38,764 nt of DNA from an uncultured Eubacteriales bacterium. GTDB lineage: Bacteria > Bacillota > Clostridia > Oscillospirales > Oscillospiraceae. This document shows positions 3,264 through 28,336 of this stretch, one piece after another. Made by a program: the position numbers and the translations under genes. The notes below the pieces were generated by a model. The model was given only the letters and a program-made list of their open reading frames with translations. It was not told the origin of the DNA and did not search any database. Location of the stretch: the NCBI GenBank assembly GCA_900554855.1, contig USIZ01000001.1, forward strand, positions 1 to 38,764, read 5' to 3'. Within the stretch, counting starts at the first letter, position 1. Every line of letters begins with the position of its first letter.

Positions 3264-4923
3264 GCTGCCGCCGGAGGTCCAGGCGTATCTGGAGGCGGTG
3301 GAGGCGGACAAGCCCCGGGCCTGCCCAGAGCAGCACGCCCTGGCGGCGCATATCCGGCGGTGCTTTGAGACAGAAGATCTGCTGGTAGATACAGAGCAGC
3401 TTCGGCGGTATTTGAGTTTGTCCCGCTATTTCCCGTATAAAGATCTTTTCCTGTGGGAGCAATTCCTGACGGCGCTTTGGATGTGCACCTACACTTCTGA
3501 CGGACGGCCCCGGTGGAAGACCCTGTTTTCCATGGTTGGCCGTGGCGCGGGAAAGGACGGCTTTATCGCATTTATCTCCATGTGCGCCACCTCTCCCTAC
3601 AACCCGGTTGGCAGCTACAACGTAGATATCTGCGCCAATAACGAGGAACAGGCCATGACGCCGGTGTTGGATCTGGTGAACACGCTGGAGCTACCCAAGA
3701 ACGAAGCGAAGCTGAAGCGGTTTTACTACCACACAAAGGAGCTGGTGCAGGGCCGAAAAAACCGGGGCGTGGTCAAGGGCCGCACCAACAACCCCAAGGG
3801 ACGGGACGGTATGCGCTCCGGCATGGTGATCTTTAACGAGGTCCACCAGTTTGAAAACTACAACAACATCAAGGTGTTTATTACCGGTCAGGGCAAGGTA
3901 GCTCAGCCCCGCGTGGGGATCTTTACCTCCAACGGCGAAGTCAATGACGGGCCTTTGGATGACTATCTGGCCAGAGGACGGCGGATCTTATTTGAAAACG
4001 AGCCGGACAACGGCTTTCTTCCCTTCATCTGCTGCGTGGAGACCCGGGAGCAGGTCCATGATCCGGAAAACTGGTACATGGCAAATCCATCCCTGTTTTA
4101 TCTGCCGGATCTATTTCAAGAAACGGCGGACGAATACCGGGACTGGGTGGAGCACCCGGAGCAAAACGGCGATTTTCTGACAAAGCGAATGGGCTTGCGG
4201 GCCGGATTTCAGGAGATCAGCGTGACAGACTATGAAAAGATCCTCAAGACCAATAAGCCACAGCCTGATCTGCGTGGCTGGACTTGCACGGTAGGGCTGG
4301 ACTATGCGGAGCTGAGCGACTGGGCGGCAGTCAACCTCCACTTCCGGCGAGGCGCAGACCGGTTTGACATCAACCACGCATGGATTTGCCTGCAATCCAA
4401 AACCCTGCCGCGGATCAAGGCTCCGTGGCAGACGTGGGCAAAGGAAGGACACCTGACGGCGGTGGATGATGTGAGCATCAGCCCTGATCTGATCGCGGCA
4501 TACATCCAGGACGCTGCCAGATGCTACAACATCAAGGCGCTGGCAATGGACCACTACCGGTGGACGCTGGTTTCCGAAAGTATGCGCGCCATCGGCTTTG
4601 ACGCGGCGGACAAGAACCGGGTAAAGCTGGTGCGGCCATCAGACATCATGCAGGTGGAGCCGGTGATCCAGGAATGCTTTGACCGGGAGCTGTTTTACTG
4701 GGGCGACCAGCCGCACCTTCGATGGGGCGTGAATAATACCAAGAGGGTCCGCAGCTCACGGAAGCAGGGTGTCGATACCGGAAACTTTATCTACGCCAAA
4801 ATTGAAGCGAAAAGCCGCAAGACAGACCCCTTTATGGCACTGGTGGCCAGCATGACGATCGAACCGCTGCTGGGCACCGGCGCTCCGCTGGCGGCCCCGC
4901 CGATAGGGGCCATCAGACTATAA
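3253..4923 (+). CDS. terL: Terminase large subunit
   Basis: Walker A-like GRGAGKDG. Size and position fit. ATG at 3253 overlaps the terS stop. Confidence 0.9.
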   Translation: MNCKLPPEVQAYLEAVEADKPRACPEQHALAAHIRRCFETEDLLVDTEQLRRYLSLSRYFPYKDLFLWEQFLTALWMCTYTSDGRPRWKTLFSMVGRGAGKDGFIAFISMCATSPYNPVGSYNVDICANNEEQAMTPVLDLVNTLELPKNEAKLKRFYYHTKELVQGRKNRGVVKGRTNNPKGRDGMRSGMVIFNEVHQFENYNNIKVFITGQGKVAQPRVGIFTSNGEVNDGPLDDYLARGRRILFENEPDNGFLPFICCVETREQVHDPENWYMANPSLFYLPDLFQETADEYRDWVEHPEQNGDFLTKRMGLRAGFQEISVTDYEKILKTNKPQPDLRGWTCTVGLDYAELSDWAAVNLHFRRGADRFDINHAWICLQSKTLPRIKAPWQTWAKEGHLTAVDDVSISPDLIAAYIQDAARCYNIKALAMDHYRWTLVSESMRAIGFDAADKNRVKLVRPSDIMQVEPVIQECFDRELFYWGDQPHLRWGVNNTKRVRSSRKQGVDTGNFIYAKIEAKSRKTDPFMALVASMTIEPLLGTGAPLAAPPIGAIRL

Positions 4924-18813: not shown

Positions 18814-19005
18814 ATGGAAAACATCAAGAAACGGCTGGGGAATCTGCTTGCGGTGAAGTCTCTGGTGACCATCACCCTGACGGTGGTGTTCGCGGTGCTG
18901 GCCCTGCGGGAGAGCATCAGCGGCAGCGAGTTTTTGACCATCTTCACGGTGGTCATCGGGTTCTATTTCGGGACCCAGCGGGTAGCGGAGGACAAGAACA
19001 GTTGA
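18814..19005 (+). CDS. Holin candidate (two TM segments)
   Basis: GAAAGGAGGAG SD. 63 aa with two hydrophobic segments, upstream of the lysins. Confidence 0.65.
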   Translation: MENIKKRLGNLLAVKSLVTITLTVVFAVLALRESISGSEFLTIFTVVIGFYFGTQRVAEDKNS

Positions 19006-20048: not shown

Positions 20049-20442
20049 GATCCACGCTTACAGCAAAGCCGCCTCCGGGGGCAAGCAGCTCTCCGCGCAT
20101 TTCAAGGTGCGGGAGTTTGCGTGTGGAGACGGGTCTGACGCTGTTTTGGTGGCGCCCCGGCTGGTGATGGTGCTGGAGACCATTCGCGCCCACTTCGGCG
20201 CTCCGGTGGTCATCCACAGTGGCTACCGCACGCCGCAGTACAATGCCAAAGTGAACGGCGCGGCTCACAGCCAGCACTGCTATGGCATGGCGGCGGATAT
20301 TTCCGTCAGCGGCCAGAAACCGGAGACGGTGGCGGCCTTCGCCCGGACGCTGATGCCCGATTTGGGCGGCGTAGGCATCTACGCCAAGAAGGGCTTTACC
20401 CACATCGACGTGCGAGAGAAACGCTCCGACTGGACGGGCTAA
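20041..20442 (+). CDS. Peptidase M15A-type zinc metallopeptidase (endolysin)
   Basis: HSGYRTPQYN...HSQHCYGMAADI...HIDV motif. Confidence 0.8.
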   Translation: MVEIHAYSKAASGGKQLSAHFKVREFACGDGSDAVLVAPRLVMVLETIRAHFGAPVVIHSGYRTPQYNAKVNGAAHSQHCYGMAADISVSGQKPETVAAFARTLMPDLGGVGIYAKKGFTHIDVREKRSDWTG

Positions 20443-20517
20443 ACATCTGAAAGGAGGGCCAGAAGATGGCAACAACATCCACGCGGTTAATCCGCGCTCT
20501 GCAAGTCTGGATAACCC

Positions 20518-20754
20518 ATGGAAAAAACAAACCGAGAGATCCGGGCGCTGTTGTCATCCATGGCCCCGGCCCGAGCGGCGCAGGCCGTCCGGCTGGTAGG
20601 CTTGCCGCCTGACGAGGAAACGGCGGTGCTGGCGGTGGATGTCCACGGCCAAAGCTGCCTACAGGCGGCGGCGCTGCTCCACGTCAGCGTGGACGGGTTG
20701 GCCAAGATCCGGCGGCGCGCCTACGCCAAAATCGCGGATGATATGCAGGGATAA
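20518..20754 (+). CDS. Small sigma-70 region-4-like HTH protein (possible late regulator); 5' end uncertain
   Basis: CLQAAALLHVSVDGLAKIRRRAYAKI HTH. No SD before ATG 20518. A strong SD plus ATG sits at 20466 in another frame. Confidence 0.6.
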   Translation: MEKTNREIRALLSSMAPARAAQAVRLVGLPPDEETAVLAVDVHGQSCLQAAALLHVSVDGLAKIRRRAYAKIADDMQG

Positions 20755-20760
20755 AGAAAA

Positions 20761-20783
20761 GCCGTGTCCGAATCGGACACGGC
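20761..20783. terminator. Bidirectional terminator, 23-nt perfect palindrome
   Basis: GCCGTGTCCGAATCGGACACGGC flanked by an A-run and a T-run, between convergent genes. Confidence 0.85.
20766..20778. repeat. GTCCGAATCGGAC palindrome, copy 5
   Basis: Core of the bidirectional terminator. Confidence 0.95.
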
Positions 20784-20788
20784 TTTCC

Positions 20789-21409
20789 TTATTTTTTTCC
20801 CCGCTTTTTCTTGCGCTGCGCCATAAAATCCTTGTCCAAGCGGTTGACTGTGGTAGGTGCTTTTCGGGTCCCTTGTCTGATTTGGGTGCGCTCCTGATGC
20901 CATTTTATCCGGAGCCTGTCACACTCCTCAGAGCATGTGATTCGAGGGGTTCCGGGGGAAATCGGTTTTCCACAAATCACGCAGACTTTTTGACCTCTTC
21001 GCGGCTTCTGTGCCCGCAGCTCATAATAATTATTTTCCTCGTTCCATTTTTTGGATGCCTCGCGGTCCGCCTGACGATATGCTCCCGGGGCACAGTCTTT
21101 ACAGTACCGCTGGCGCGCCGAATTGACAATATACTCTTTCCCGCAGATCGTACAATGGTCAATACTGCCAAGAGGCCGGATTGTTCCGCTTTTGTGGCAT
21201 CGTGCAGCTGACTCTTTTTTGCGGATGGCCCGGCAATTAGGGCAGTACCAAGCCCGAGGGCCACCGTCAAAGATCGCACCACACTCGCGGCAAGTCCGTG
21301 GGCGTATGGTGGTAGATCTCTCTGCCGCAAAACACTCCGCACATACACGCTGCTCAACTTTGGTGGCGGGGAACAGCTTCCCGCATTTTATGCACGCCTT
21401 GAGCCGCAT
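20789..21409 (-). CDS. Multi-CxxC zinc-ribbon protein with basic tail
   Basis: 206 aa with at least 6 CxxC pairs and a KKKRGKK C-terminus. Confidence 0.65.
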   Translation of the reverse strand: MRLKACIKCGKLFPATKVEQRVCAECFAAERSTTIRPRTCRECGAIFDGGPRAWYCPNCRAIRKKESAARCHKSGTIRPLGSIDHCTICGKEYIVNSARQRYCKDCAPGAYRQADREASKKWNEENNYYELRAQKPRRGQKVCVICGKPISPGTPRITCSEECDRLRIKWHQERTQIRQGTRKAPTTVNRLDKDFMAQRKKKRGKK

Positions 21410-21412
21410 ATT

Positions 21413-21751
21413 TTAGCCCCGCGTGTATAGCCCTACGGCTTGCGCCAGCAAAATCCGCAAATAGTCCGGGCAAGCGCTTGCCCCAGATTCCCAATTCTCC
21501 ACCGTCCGGCGCGGGATACAGAAGCGCTGGGCAAAAGCAACCTGAGACAAGCCAGTGGCTGCTCTGATCTCGCGGATCGTAATATGAGCCACATCCCACA
21601 ACGCTCCCAAAGACTGGATCCGATCATCCGGGATGTCAGCGCCTTCCGGATCTCCCCAGATGTCAGATAGCGCCCAGTCTGATACATACATGTCCCGGTC
21701 TTGGTCGGCAAGTGCACCGAAAAAGAGGGTGCTGAACTGCTTGTCAGTCAT
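21413..21751 (-). CDS. XRE-family HTH regulator (C-terminal HTH)
   Basis: IREIRAATGLSQVAFAQRFCIPRRTVENWESG. Confidence 0.8.
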   Translation of the reverse strand: MTDKQFSTLFFGALADQDRDMYVSDWALSDIWGDPEGADIPDDRIQSLGALWDVAHITIREIRAATGLSQVAFAQRFCIPRRTVENWESGASACPDYLRILLAQAVGLYTRG

Positions 21752-21763
21752 GGTATATCCTCC

Positions 21764-22036
21764 TTAATTCAGTTCATCAACAAAGACAACCATATCTTCG
21801 TCAGGGACAAGGACTCCGTCCTCGTCATATTTGATGCAAGCGCCATCTTCGCAGGTGCTGTTGTTGGCCATTTCGATGCAATAATCAACATCCTCAACGG
21901 TATAAGTATCAGTTTCCTCATCATAGGGCAGGGAACCGGCGGTAAAATAATCGCGGCTCCAGTCCGGATCGTATCCGGAACCATTCCAGCGCTGGATCTT
22001 GATCTCTACGGTTTTCTTTCCATCAGTAATTTTCAT
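21764..22036 (-). CDS. Small highly acidic protein (90 aa)
   Basis: AGGAGG SD. By hand count, 23 Asp/Glu versus 7 Lys/Arg. First gene of the minus-strand operon. Confidence 0.7.
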   Translation of the reverse strand: MKITDGKKTVEIKIQRWNGSGYDPDWSRDYFTAGSLPYDEETDTYTVEDVDYCIEMANNSTCEDGACIKYDEDGVLVPDEDMVVFVDELN

Positions 22037-22075
22037 TTTATTTTCCTCCTGGGCTTTGCCCCTCTTGTTGTTATT

Positions 22076-22104
22076 ATAATACCACCAATTTAGTGGTATG
22101 TCAA
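22076..22104 (-). promoter_or_regulatory. Promoter TTGACA-17-TATTAT with an inverted-repeat operator in the spacer
   Basis: Reverse complement of 22099-22104 is TTGACA and of 22076-22081 is TATTAT. ATACCAC-N7-GTGGTAT spans 22078-22098. Confidence 0.7.
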
Positions 22105-22137
22105 GAGGAAAAAGCAAAAAATACAAAATATTTTTTG

Positions 22138-22178
22138 GGCAGTTTGAGGGCAGAATACAGGCAGTTTCCGGGCAGTTT
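22138..22178 (+). promoter_or_regulatory. Four GGCAG(T/A)(T/A)T boxes phased at exactly 11 bp
   Basis: Boxes start at 22138, 22149, 22160 and 22171, upstream of the cargo operon. Confidence 0.7.
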
Positions 22179-22226
22179 GGCTGTCCGGATTTTTTGTATC
22201 ATATACGTGTAAAGGAGGCGCACACA

Positions 22227-22364
22227 ATGTACGAGCGGCTTTTGGCCTGCGGGTATCCGGCAGAGATGGCGCGAGAGATCATAGCGCGGACCGACCCGGC
22301 GGAGCTGGAACGATACGTGCGCATGATTGAGCTTTTATACGATGACCGGAGGGAATATGTATAA
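22227..22364 (+). CDS. Small helical protein (45 aa), cargo gene 1
   Basis: AAAGGAGG SD. Confidence 0.55.
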   Translation: MYERLLACGYPAEMAREIIARTDPAELERYVRMIELLYDDRREYV

Positions 22365-22737
22365 CCATTTCAACCCCAACCCCTGCGGGAAAAATGTGGG
22401 GGATTGCACCGTGCGGGCAATCGTAAAGGCTACCGGCAAGGATTGGGGCGAAATTTATTTGCGGCTCTGTATCCAAGGGTATCTGGATGGGGATATGCCG
22501 TCGGCAAACGCTTGTTGGGGGAGGTATCTCCGCAGCATCGGATATCGGCGGTATATCGTGCCGGACACTTGCCCAGACTGCTACACGGTTGGGCAATTTG
22601 CGGAGGATCACCCAAAAGGCACCTATATTCTGGCGCTGTCCGGTCATGTGGTCTGCGTCTGCGACGGCATGATCTGGGACAGCTGGGACAGCAGCAATGA
22701 GAACATCTTGTATTACTGGGTCAAGGAGGATGACTAA
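22357..22737 (+). CDS. Putative papain-like Cys/His peptidase-fold protein, cargo gene 2
   Basis: GDCTVRAI (Cys) and SGHVVCV (His) motifs. ATG at 22357 overlaps the upstream stop. Confidence 0.55.
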   Translation: MYNHFNPNPCGKNVGDCTVRAIVKATGKDWGEIYLRLCIQGYLDGDMPSANACWGRYLRSIGYRRYIVPDTCPDCYTVGQFAEDHPKGTYILALSGHVVCVCDGMIWDSWDSSNENILYYWVKEDD

Positions 22738-22738
22738 A

Positions 22739-23185
22739 ATGGCTTACACACCTTACGGATGGCAAAATCCCTATTACGCACCGCCTATGCCGGATAACCT
22801 CATGCAGATGCGCCAGCAGCAGATGCAGCCCATGACGCCCCAGATGCCGCAGGCTCCGCAAAACCCGGTGGCGCAGAGCGGCGTCCAGTGGGTAGCCGGT
22901 GAGAAAGAAGCCCGCAACTGGATGATCGCGCCTAACGCCGCCGTGGCGTTGTGGGACAGCACGGCCCCAACGGTATATCTCAAGCAGGCGGACGCCAGCG
23001 GCAAACCGTCCCTTAAAATTTATGACCTCGTAGAGCGCTCTCAGACGCCGCCTGCCGCACCGCAGGCTAAGGCCGTGGATTTTGTCACGCGGGAGGAGTT
23101 TGACCGTCTGGCGGCGATTGTGGGCGAAATTCGGGGCAAAGAAAAGCCCGCGAAGAAAGTAAAGGAGGCTGACGCTGATGGCTAA
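22739..23185 (+). CDS. Q/P/M-rich N-terminus plus small beta domain protein, cargo gene 3
   Basis: AAGGAGGA SD. Starts 2 nt after the upstream stop. Confidence 0.6.
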   Translation: MAYTPYGWQNPYYAPPMPDNLMQMRQQQMQPMTPQMPQAPQNPVAQSGVQWVAGEKEARNWMIAPNAAVALWDSTAPTVYLKQADASGKPSLKIYDLVERSQTPPAAPQAKAVDFVTREEFDRLAAIVGEIRGKEKPAKKVKEADADG

Positions 23186-25798: not shown

Positions 25799-25837
25799 TG
25801 TGTTCAAAACTGTGTTCAGCCGGAAAATATGTGTTCA
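25799..25837 (+). repeat. Three TGTGTTCA boxes (putative arm-type sites, P' arm)
   Basis: Copies at 25799-25806, 25811-25818 and 25830-25837. Confidence 0.55.
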
Positions 25838-26869
25838 GAAGCCTTTCTCCATCTTTTCCGCAGCGGCCTTCAGCTGGCCGTCCCGGACGTGGGTGTAGAT
25901 GTCCATGGTGGTGGACAGCTGGGCGTGGCCAAGGAGCACCTGCGCCGTTTTAGGATCCACGCCGCTTTCCAGCAGGGCGGTGGCGTAGCCGTGGCGGATC
26001 TGGTGCGCCGTGACGGTGACGCCGCTGGCATCCCGGTAGGCATCGTACAGCGAGGTAAAGTGATCGTTTGTCAGGAGGCTGCCGTCCGGCTCCGCGAACA
26101 GGTAGCCTTTCCCCAGCTTTTTGGGGAGCAGCTTAGCCAGCGCCGGAAGAAGCGGAACGTCCCGGCATCCGGCGTCAGACTTCGGCTGCTTGATGTGGGG
26201 CGAGTTGCCTACATGATACACGGATTTTTTGATGTGCACAAGATTTTTCTTTCGGTCGATGTCGGCGCCGGTGAGGGCCAGCGCCTCACCACGGCGGCAG
26301 CCGGTGTAATAAACGAGGAAGGCGAACAGGCCGAAGGGGAGGCCTGCGCCTTTTTTTATGAGTTCAATCTGCTCCGGAGGGGGCGCGTCCCGGTGGGTCT
26401 GCGTCAGATTCCGGGGCGGCTTCACGGCGCTGGCCGGGTTGTAGCTTATAACGCCATCCACTTCGGCTTTGCGGAAGATCTGGCGGATGATCTGCAACTG
26501 GGTCACCACGGTTTTCCGGGCGCGGGTGGCGGCGAAGTCCTTGATATACTGGTCGATCTCCTTCGCGGTGATCTCGCCGGGTGCCCTCCCGGCAAATTCC
26601 GTCTTGGCCCGGGCCAGCGCCGGACGGTAGCTTTTTTGGGTATTGTGCTCTAAGGTCGGTTCGATCTCCGACCACCATGCGTCTGCGATTTTCTCAAATA
26701 CGGCGGCTTTTTCCGTTTCGATGCGGTCCGCCTCCCGGTCAAAGGCCTTGACCTTCTCCCAGACCTCTTTGTCGGTCTTCCCCCGGAAGGCCTTACGCTT
26801 GCCGTTGATCCGGAGGATGGTCTCGTGGAGGCCGTCAGGCCGGACGTAGTATTTCGGGTATCTTGCCAT
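25835..26869 (-). CDS. int: Tyrosine-type site-specific integrase
   Basis: R (CRRGEAL), HxxR (HQIRHGYAT) and Y (MDIYTH). Adjacent to attP. Confidence 0.9.
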   Translation of the reverse strand: MARYPKYYVRPDGLHETILRINGKRKAFRGKTDKEVWEKVKAFDREADRIETEKAAVFEKIADAWWSEIEPTLEHNTQKSYRPALARAKTEFAGRAPGEITAKEIDQYIKDFAATRARKTVVTQLQIIRQIFRKAEVDGVISYNPASAVKPPRNLTQTHRDAPPPEQIELIKKGAGLPFGLFAFLVYYTGCRRGEALALTGADIDRKKNLVHIKKSVYHVGNSPHIKQPKSDAGCRDVPLLPALAKLLPKKLGKGYLFAEPDGSLLTNDHFTSLYDAYRDASGVTVTAHQIRHGYATALLESGVDPKTAQVLLGHAQLSTTMDIYTHVRDGQLKAAAEKMEKGF

Positions 26870-27907: not shown

Positions 27908-28336
27908 TCAGTGGACGCACTTGTCGCAGGGCGTCAGACCCATGCCGGTGGCGGTGCTGTAAGGCACTTCCCAGTAGGTGCCGCCGTTGCAATGGGGATC
28001 GCTGTGGTATTTGCTGCCGGTGCGGGTGATGTAGGTAGGCTTGGATGCCTCCGGATGTGTCAGCACCACGGTAGCGGTGGAGCCGTCCCACGCCACCTGA
28101 AGGCCCAGAGACTCCGCCAGAGCGCGGGCGGGGATATAGTTCGTTCCGGCGAACATGAAGGGCTCCACGGTGTTGCCCTTGGCGTCCCGCAGATCCAGTA
28201 CCTGACCGTCCAGAGATACCTTGATATCACGGTATTCGATCTCCTGCTGCACTTTGCCGCTGGTAGCGCTTGCCGTGCCAACCAGGCACATGAGCAGCAG
28301 CGTGGCCAGAACTCCGGCTAAGAATCCTCTTTTCAT
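27908..28336 (-). CDS. Secreted protein: signal peptide, copper-amine-oxidase-N-like stalk domain, C-terminal KYH..C...PCxxC motif
   Basis: MKRGFLAGVLATLLLMCLVGTASA signal. YIPARALAESLGLQVAWD. GSKYHSDPHCNG...PCDKC. Confidence 0.7.
   Translation of the reverse strand: MKRGFLAGVLATLLLMCLVGTASATSGKVQQEIEYRDIKVSLDGQVLDLRDAKGNTVEPFMFAGTNYIPARALAESLGLQVAWDGSTATVVLTHPEASKPTYITRTGSKYHSDPHCNGGTYWEVPYSTATGMGLTPCDKCVH

Follow-up and report, generated by a model that had tools for sequence, protein, structure and literature searches.

A candidate self-repressed operon of the acr-aca kind with an exchangeable payload slot in a putative temperate phage of gut Clostridia

What does a phage gain from a small, extremely acidic protein that is encoded behind a strong promoter and directly ahead of a helix-turn-helix (HTH) gene? 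We addressed this question for an operon on the minus strand of a contig of 38,764 nucleotides (nt) from an uncultured Eubacteriales bacterium (USIZ01000001.1 of assembly GCA_900554855.1), which was analysed over its whole length and is called the window below. In anti-CRISPR (acr) and anti-CRISPR-associated (aca) loci, a strong early promoter is shut off by an Aca protein of the HTH or the ribbon-helix-helix (RHH) type bound to inverted repeats (PMC13551039), with Aca1, Aca2 and the RHH-type Aca14 as the paradigms of autoregulation (PMC13551039, PMC9410906, PMC8633003). Where an Aca-regulated frame contains uncharacterised genes, these are regarded as candidates for anti-defence, and RHH-type regulators have by now been described too (PMC13551039). 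We read the operon as an autonomous accessory unit that a temperate phage of gut Clostridia carries and that has the build of an acr-aca locus; its acidic protein would block a host defence. We give this reading about an even chance of being right. Its elements are as follows.

22076-22104, minus strand: sigma-70-type promoter, TTGACA (22104-22099), a 17-nt spacer and TATTAT (22081-22076), matching the consensus at 11 of 12 positions and carrying a TG extension
22079-22099: putative operator, the inverted repeat ATACCAC-N7-GTGGTAT, which fills the promoter spacer and overlaps the -10 element
22037-22075, minus strand: 5' untranslated leader, as read from the sequence
21764-22036, minus strand: acidic payload gene of 90 residues, the first gene of the operon, from an uncharacterised phage family
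21413-21751, minus strand: XRE-type HTH gene of 112 residues, starting 12 nt after the stop codon of the acidic gene
20789-21409, minus strand: Zn-ribbon gene of 206 residues with an isoelectric point (pI) of 9.9, an optional third gene that starts 3 nt after the HTH stop codon
20754-20790: bidirectional intrinsic terminator with a 13-bp stem (20758-20786), a T run and inverted-repeat arms of 18 nt, common with a convergent gene resembling sigma region 4 (20518-20754)

The operon is a self-contained unit: it has a promoter, an operator and Shine-Dalgarno sites of its own, its genes are tightly spaced, and the terminator with its stem at 20758-20786 closes it. The initial annotation had described the TTGACA-17-TATTAT promoter, the inverted repeat in its spacer, the 90-residue protein with 23 Asp/Glu against 7 Lys/Arg, the XRE gene downstream and the multi-Zn-ribbon gene after it, and each of these was recovered with the same positions and residue counts. 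At the loose threshold of our promoter scan, 1.9 sites are expected by chance in 2.4 kb, so that the promoter count carries no significance by itself and the weight lies on the quality of the match and on its conservation. The full repeat ATACCAC-N7-GTGGTAT matches the window at this single place even when two mismatches are allowed (0.06 expected by chance), and its core ACCAC-N7-GTGGT occurs once in perfect form. Three further sites with one mismatch are found within coding regions, at 18871-18887, 18937-18953 and 28065-28081, two of them 66 nt apart in a holin-like gene; perfect and one-mismatch sites together number four against 0.86 expected, and the three imperfect ones are probably due to chance. 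An Rfam search of 20400-22800 returned only a chance-level CrcZ match (E 0.9).

To see which parts of this layout persist in other phages, we compared two sets of loci, namely 80 HTH loci from an IMG/VR search with the HTH alignment, and 86 acidic-gene loci, of which 80 came from IMG/VR and 6 from GTDB. Genes in the loci were called heuristically from open reading frames (ORFs) and Shine-Dalgarno sequences, and the loci are related to one another, so that the counts given below are not independent. The comparison strongly supports a frame, formed by the operator and the HTH gene, that stays constant while its payload is exchanged among unrelated small proteins. In about 70 of the 80 HTH loci, a single ACC[AG]C-N7-G[TC]GGT palindrome is present upstream of the HTH gene, where by our own estimate about 0.02 would be expected by chance per 6-kb locus. 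Wherever the surrounding sequence was read (for example in L103, L104, L113 and L134), the palindrome sits in the 17-nt spacer of a TTGACA-type promoter. Among the lineages compared (the window, L001, L017, L047 and L081), the identity of the HTH protein to that of the window falls to 57-61%; the ACCAC/GTGGT half-sites are kept in every one of them except for one substitution in L047, and the inner bases of the operator change on both halves with the symmetry preserved (CAA/TTG, GCA/TGC and ACA/TGT). Symmetric changes combined with retained half-sites are what a dimeric reader would impose, and from this conservation we infer that the HTH protein binds the repeat.

The acidic gene is present in 30 of the 80 HTH loci and missing from the other 50. 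The payloads found in the slot upstream of the HTH gene are the following.

Acidic family, 90 residues: 30 loci
A 68-residue gene together with a 92-residue gene: about 20 loci
A 178-residue family: 8 loci
A 95-residue family with a pI of 4.1, in some cases with a short Zn-ribbon gene after it: 8 loci
A 146-residue family: 3 loci
Proteins of 63-71 residues with a pI of 4.1: a few loci

Together with the acidic family, the slot therefore accommodates at least six payload families, several of which are acidic; it can hold two or three genes, and none of the payloads is basic. The other payload families have no credible Pfam match, and searches of PDB sequences with three of them gave nothing credible, the matches of the 95-residue payload to designed Kelch proteins containing no stretch that passed. 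The exchange is also visible at one fixed position, because beside the neighbouring 8-gene cassette of related phages the same place is taken by the acidic gene, the 95-residue gene or the 63-residue gene. The acr-aca-like architecture, which the initial annotation had proposed from one stretch of DNA, thus extends beyond the single locus as a conserved operator-HTH frame with exchanged upstream genes. The loci with the 68- and 92-residue genes (L106-L110, L114-L116, L121-L128 and L155-L167) contain in addition a hairpin resembling a terminator (AAAGCACCGG-N4-CCGGTG and then a T run), which is located about 40-70 nt before the HTH start, between the payload and the HTH gene, and which has no equivalent in the window; this hairpin may lower the output of the regulator relative to that of the payload.

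Viewed from the acidic gene, the regulator is exchanged as well. The 112-residue HTH gene is found downstream in 36 of the 86 acidic-gene loci, the two genes being adjacent throughout L001-L034 and L047; a divergent RHH-like gene of 61-62 residues is found upstream in 18 loci, and HTH genes of other types (HTH_3 of 61-62 residues, GerE/sigma region 4, HTH_17 and HTH_26) are found downstream in 8. The acidic gene of the L035 group is preceded by a consensus promoter of its own and stands last in its operon, followed by a convergent gene for the terminase small subunit. In 46 of 64 distinct regions upstream of acidic-gene homologues, there is a promoter with 10 or more of 12 positions matched, its spacer being 17 nt in all but one, and 35 of the 64 regions have a palindrome in or beside that promoter. 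For the other genes of the same loci with an upstream gap of at least 100 nt, which served as the control, the corresponding numbers are 21 of 211 for the promoter and 7 of 211 for promoter plus palindrome; since the sequences are related, this comparison is descriptive only and was put to no formal test. In the acidic-gene upstream regions inspected, the palindromes differ by regulator.

112-residue HTH: ACCAC-N7-GTGGT
Short HTH_3 types: CCAATATTGG-like
RHH alleles: CATGCTAGCATG, ACCGTTAACGGT or ACCGTATACGGT

The divergent RHH-like gene, whose distance upstream of the acidic gene is about 170-210 nt, occurs in L044-L063 as four alleles, and each allele is accompanied by paired palindromes specific to it, while the acidic proteins are still about 64-66% identical to that of the window; this joint variation of RHH gene and palindrome looks like an exchange of immunity-type specificity. 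Another side observation concerns L074, in which a gene pair with DUF4160 and DUF2442 domains (4253-4881), which we take to be a toxin-antitoxin-like combination, follows the acidic gene. The initial annotation had named homologues in contexts unrelated to mobile elements as evidence against its idea, and no such context was seen: all homologues found are on phage contigs or on a few contigs of metagenome-assembled genomes, and the gene was found in none of 60 related bacterial genomes. The gene is phage cargo.

The 112-residue HTH protein matches Pfam HTH_3 (27.9 bits, cut-off 23) and phrog_25567, and is divided into an acidic N-terminal domain (residues 1-55, pI about 4) composed of three helices and a basic C-terminal HTH domain (residues 56-112). 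In its structural model, with a predicted local distance difference test score (pLDDT) of 95, the N-terminal domain is a confidently folded helical bundle, for which no structural match was found. The nearest structures to the HTH domain are the HigB2-HigA2 complex and HigA2 (8a0x, 5jaa and 5j9i), at 30-33% identity over about 54 residues, with a root-mean-square deviation of about 2 Å and a weak Foldseek E of about 0.3. Below HigA2, the Foldseek list consists of generic XRE domains, with Aca2 at rank 21, as for any XRE domain. A profile search of PDB sequences found only Atu1735 (1e-4) and HigA-2 (3.5e-3) and gave no match to Aca1 or Aca2, and NCBIfam gave an MqsA-type match (1.4e-4) below the family cut-off. 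Given its conserved partnership with the operator, the 112-residue protein is probably an Aca-like autorepressor of the operon.

The 90-residue acidic protein carries a net charge of about -16, and its gene has AGGAGG 8 nt before the ATG codon. All aligned homologues begin at the same M-K/R/I-I/L/M-T-D-G, which indicates that the ATG start is right and that a longer ORF from a TTG codon is wrong. The family comprises 219 homologues in a collection clustered at 90% and 242 clusters at 50% identity, and its acidity is kept throughout (median 22 Asp/Glu against 7 Lys/Arg). Conservation is high over approximately the N-terminal 57-60 residues and in the last strand, and takes in the motif PDWSxD[YF]F as well as D5, W17, D25, V47 and V50; residues 58-80 are variable and often deleted. 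No match was found in Pfam at E 0.1 or better, in PHROG or in PADLOC, and the match in NCBIfam was at chance level (E 0.07); a profile search of PDB sequences gave no match below E 0.2, and the ESM Atlas gave no usable one. A tblastn search of GenBank phages and PLSDB plasmids gave no match, which may reflect masking of the query by the low-complexity filter and is not to be read as absence.

The AlphaFold2 model of the acidic protein, based on an alignment of 28 sequences, is a compact alpha/beta domain with a mean pLDDT of 96. Foldseek found nothing credible for it in the PDB (best E = 2), and neither did VIA-align, a Foldseek-independent comparison with 48,161 PDB representatives (best Z 3.1); in BFVD, the matches were to uncharacterised gut-phage proteins only. 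The Ung inhibitor p56 was considered as a fold match and rejected, because its Z of 2.1 is noise. According to this model, the fold is apparently new and unlike that of any solved structure. Such a result bears on the initial annotation, which had put the protein forward as a candidate DNA mimic: the charge speaks for mimicry, and it alone does, whereas the confident model matches no solved structure, those of Ocr, ArdA and AcrIIA4 included. About one quarter of the acidic-family representatives listed are longer proteins with the domain at their N-terminus. In two of them, P0186 and P0190, the domain is independently fused to an HTH domain, of a different type in each case, and two are fusions to DUF3849 (P0234 and P0242), a domain of which we found no mention in the literature searched and which the paper on polyvalent proteins does not name. 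Many other proteins with the acidic domain (for example P0124, P0160 and P0203) have long acidic C-terminal regions without a Pfam match.

Upstream of the acidic gene, the leader contains a small hairpin composed of GGGC (22061-22058), AAA and GCCC (22054-22051), which directly precedes the Shine-Dalgarno sequence AGGAGG (22050-22045). GC hairpins of 4-5 bp and of varying sequence occupy the equivalent position ahead of the Shine-Dalgarno sequence in the leaders of L017, L044, L065, L069, L103, L104, L113, L134 and L135, and the variants across lineages and payloads include GGGC-AAA-GCCC, GCCC-ACA-GGGC, GGGGC-AA-GCCCC, GCCGC-N3-GCGGC and GCCGG-N6-CCGGC. The hairpin does not resemble the DNA operator in sequence; by comparison with the RNA motifs of Aca2 and Aca1, it could be an mRNA stabiliser or a site of translational control.

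The third gene of the operon encodes a protein with 17 Cys residues in eight CxxC-type pairs, forming four Zn ribbons, and shows weak matches to DZR_2 and DUF2116. It is missing from L010, L012, L013, L017, L027, L028, L031-L033 and L047, and its location varies, since it follows the HTH gene in the window and a shorter version of 112 residues precedes the HTH gene in L111, L112, L119, L131, L132 and L149. The annotation of Flavonifractor phage Cormatin at the Zn-ribbon-like match is uninformative. We considered the acidic protein as an antitoxin or chaperone of this basic protein and rejected the idea, because the Zn-ribbon gene is often missing while the acidic gene stays.

The window is the entire contig C1 of a metagenome bin (1.72 Mb, 74% complete) and reads as a complete temperate phage genome, in which the following regions surround the operon.

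3.1-17.6 kb: packaging and structural genes
19.4-20.4 kb: lysis genes
20518-20754, plus strand: sigma-70-region-4-like gene of 78 residues, convergent on the operon and with the terminator in common
25835-26869: integrase gene, followed by regulators

The accessory region in which the operon is located thus lies between lysis and integrase genes, and the operon is on the strand opposite to its neighbours. No exact terminal repeat of 11-200 nt was found in the window (1-38764), and the phage genome may have been binned together with its host instead of being integrated. The operon is divergent from the 8-gene cassette, which it usually adjoins; it is kept in L008, L012, L013 and L016, where most of this cassette is missing, and it is inverted relative to the same flanking genes in L047. 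The HTH protein was considered as the main regulator of the cassette, and this was rejected because 45 of the 80 HTH loci have no gene of the cassette within 3 kb. The sigma-region-4-like gene accompanies the operon in nearly all phages of the window's type, including those without the 8-gene cassette, and in L047 it is positioned directly upstream of the operon on the same strand.

How, then, might the operon work? The host RNA polymerase would fire the near-consensus promoter once the DNA is available, and of the products, the 90-residue acidic protein would be made first and translated best. The co-transcribed 112-residue HTH protein would accumulate and bind as a dimer to the ACCAC-N7-GTGGT palindrome, and the dimer on the spacer palindrome would shut the operon down. 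Made first after entry, the acidic protein would meanwhile bind and block a host protein, the most likely target being a DNA-targeting defence such as restriction-modification, CRISPR-Cas or another system, and the Zn-ribbon protein would be an optional passenger. The operon combines a conserved regulator and operator with a strong host-type promoter and exchangeable small unannotated proteins, several of them acidic, as is the published signature of acr-aca loci (PMC13551039), and we therefore take it to be a self-repressed cassette of that kind. The acidic protein is most likely a binding inhibitor, and it is plausible as a candidate anti-defence factor.

Several observations weigh against this reading. 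In 24 of the 86 acidic-gene loci, there is no adjacent regulator of the types screened, and the HTH domain is nearest to the antitoxin HigA2 and not to a named Aca. In L017, the acidic protein retains 86% identity and its regulator 61%; stronger conservation of the payload than of the regulator, together with the wide distribution of the payload, is unusual for Acrs and fits any conserved host target. None of the payloads matches a known Acr or anti-restriction family in Pfam or the PDB, nor does the acidic protein of the window in PADLOC, so that guilt by association has no known positive control here. As for the host, its bin, at 74% completeness, shows no Cas1 above the cut-off and no type I restriction-modification genes (HsdS or HsdM).

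The main rival explanation takes the operon as a general repressor-controlled moron, whose payload would act outside immunity, either by inhibiting a host housekeeping protein (RNA polymerase or a sigma factor, or a protein of replication or division) during takeover or by excluding superinfecting phages from the lysogen. The place between the lysis genes and attP/integrase is the usual one for morons, and the promoter needs no phage factor. In addition, the strong conservation of the N-terminal 60 residues over 242 clusters suggests a conserved target, and the sigma-region-4-like gene is a constant neighbour in phages of the window's type. Nothing specific, however, indicates any such target, and the exchange of unrelated small proteins, several of them acidic, at one position is better documented for anti-defence loci (PMC13551039). 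On balance, we consider the moron explanation unlikely, although it is the one that competes most directly with an anti-defence function.

The similarity to HigA2 raises a different question, namely whether the operon could be a type II toxin-antitoxin module in reverse order, of the HigBA2/MqsRA kind, in which the first gene would encode the toxin and the HTH protein would be an antitoxin that neutralises it with the N-terminal domain and represses with the C-terminal HTH. Gene order and the layout with an operator in the promoter match such a module, and the HTH occupies the C-terminus, like that of HigA2; structural comparison gives a weak but consistent similarity to HigB2-HigA2 and HigA2 as the best matches, and HigA-2 (3.5e-3 in the PDB profile search) and the MqsA-type family (1.4e-4 in NCBIfam, below the family cut-off) point in the same direction. 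The first protein, however, is extremely acidic and shows no likeness to the RelE/ParE superfamily (HigB, MqsR) or to any other known toxin family in Pfam or fold searches. Its gene does without an adjacent regulator of the types screened in the 24 loci mentioned above and stands last in the operon in the L035 group, and in 18 loci the regulator is a divergent RHH gene that is not co-transcribed. Moreover, two or three genes may occupy the slot, with no basic protein among their products, and the N-terminal domain of the HTH protein is a folded helical bundle rather than a disordered tail. A toxin-antitoxin module therefore fits poorly, and we consider it very unlikely. The acidic domain could also be a regulatory partner of the HTH protein (a co-repressor, an anti-repressor or a sensor), the two forming a switch that possibly controls the 8-gene cassette. 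The two independent fusions to HTH domains of two types and the divergent position of the operon, usually adjoining the cassette, speak for such a partnership. The fusions do not discriminate, however, because HTH-Acr fusions are also known among Acrs, as in AcrIIA1. Furthermore, the HTH frame carries other payloads in 50 of 80 loci, the cassette is absent within 3 kb of the HTH gene in 45 of 80, the acidic gene also occurs without an adjacent regulator of the types screened, and the window has a single perfect operator. A regulatory partnership is accordingly judged highly improbable.

Returning to the acr-aca-like reading, the practical consequence is that the HTH profile and the ACCAC-N7-GTGGT motif together form a sequence handle, which already brings up six or more payload families without annotation across dozens of phage genomes; with its 242 clusters, the acidic family is the most widespread. 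Phages of the gut Clostridia, which are strict anaerobes and hard to culture, have so far yielded few known anti-defence proteins. Should even one payload prove to be inhibitory, the frame would serve for discovery in this clade, and the inhibitors could be useful as reagents. A bolder proposal, which we make tentatively and consider rather doubtful, is that the HigA2-like HTH protein and ACCAC-N7-GTGGT represent a family of the Aca type that is new and would mark a hot spot of anti-defence genes in gut-Clostridia phages. At least six new inhibitor families would then be carried there, the acidic protein being the first, with a new fold whose conserved PDWSxD[YF]F surface would block a conserved component of host defence.

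Among characterised systems, three come closest to the operon. It resembles HigB2-HigA2 of Vibrio cholerae (5jaa, 8a0x) in having a similar C-terminal HTH, the HTH gene in second position and a palindromic operator in the promoter. It differs from that system in its acidic upstream protein, which lacks a Pfam or credible fold match and is often encoded alone, in the HTH protein, whose N-terminal half folds into a three-helix domain without a match, and in a payload slot of variable content with room for several genes. The acidic protein, for its part, is comparable to T7 Ocr, ArdA and AcrIIA4, being small, very acidic, phage-borne and encoded by the first gene behind a strong promoter of the host type. 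It has no sequence or detectable fold similarity to these proteins, and its model is a compact alpha/beta domain with a conserved aromatic-acidic motif, PDWSxD[YF]F, and not an elongated array of charges.

The acr-aca operons are close in organisation, although three differences should be noted. None of the payloads here is a known Acr; the HTH protein is without a sequence match to Aca1 and Aca2, has a helical N-terminal domain ahead of its C-terminal HTH and finds its nearest structure in an antitoxin; and the leader hairpin does not resemble the DNA operator. In common with acr-aca operons, the small unannotated gene or genes come first and the HTH gene last within one operon (with gaps of 12 nt and 3 nt here), the strong promoter bears an inverted repeat, and a small hairpin in the 5' leader adjoins the ribosome-binding site. 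As in those operons, too, the regulator is the conserved anchor while the genes upstream of it are exchanged, and the same payload is also found with regulators of the RHH type.

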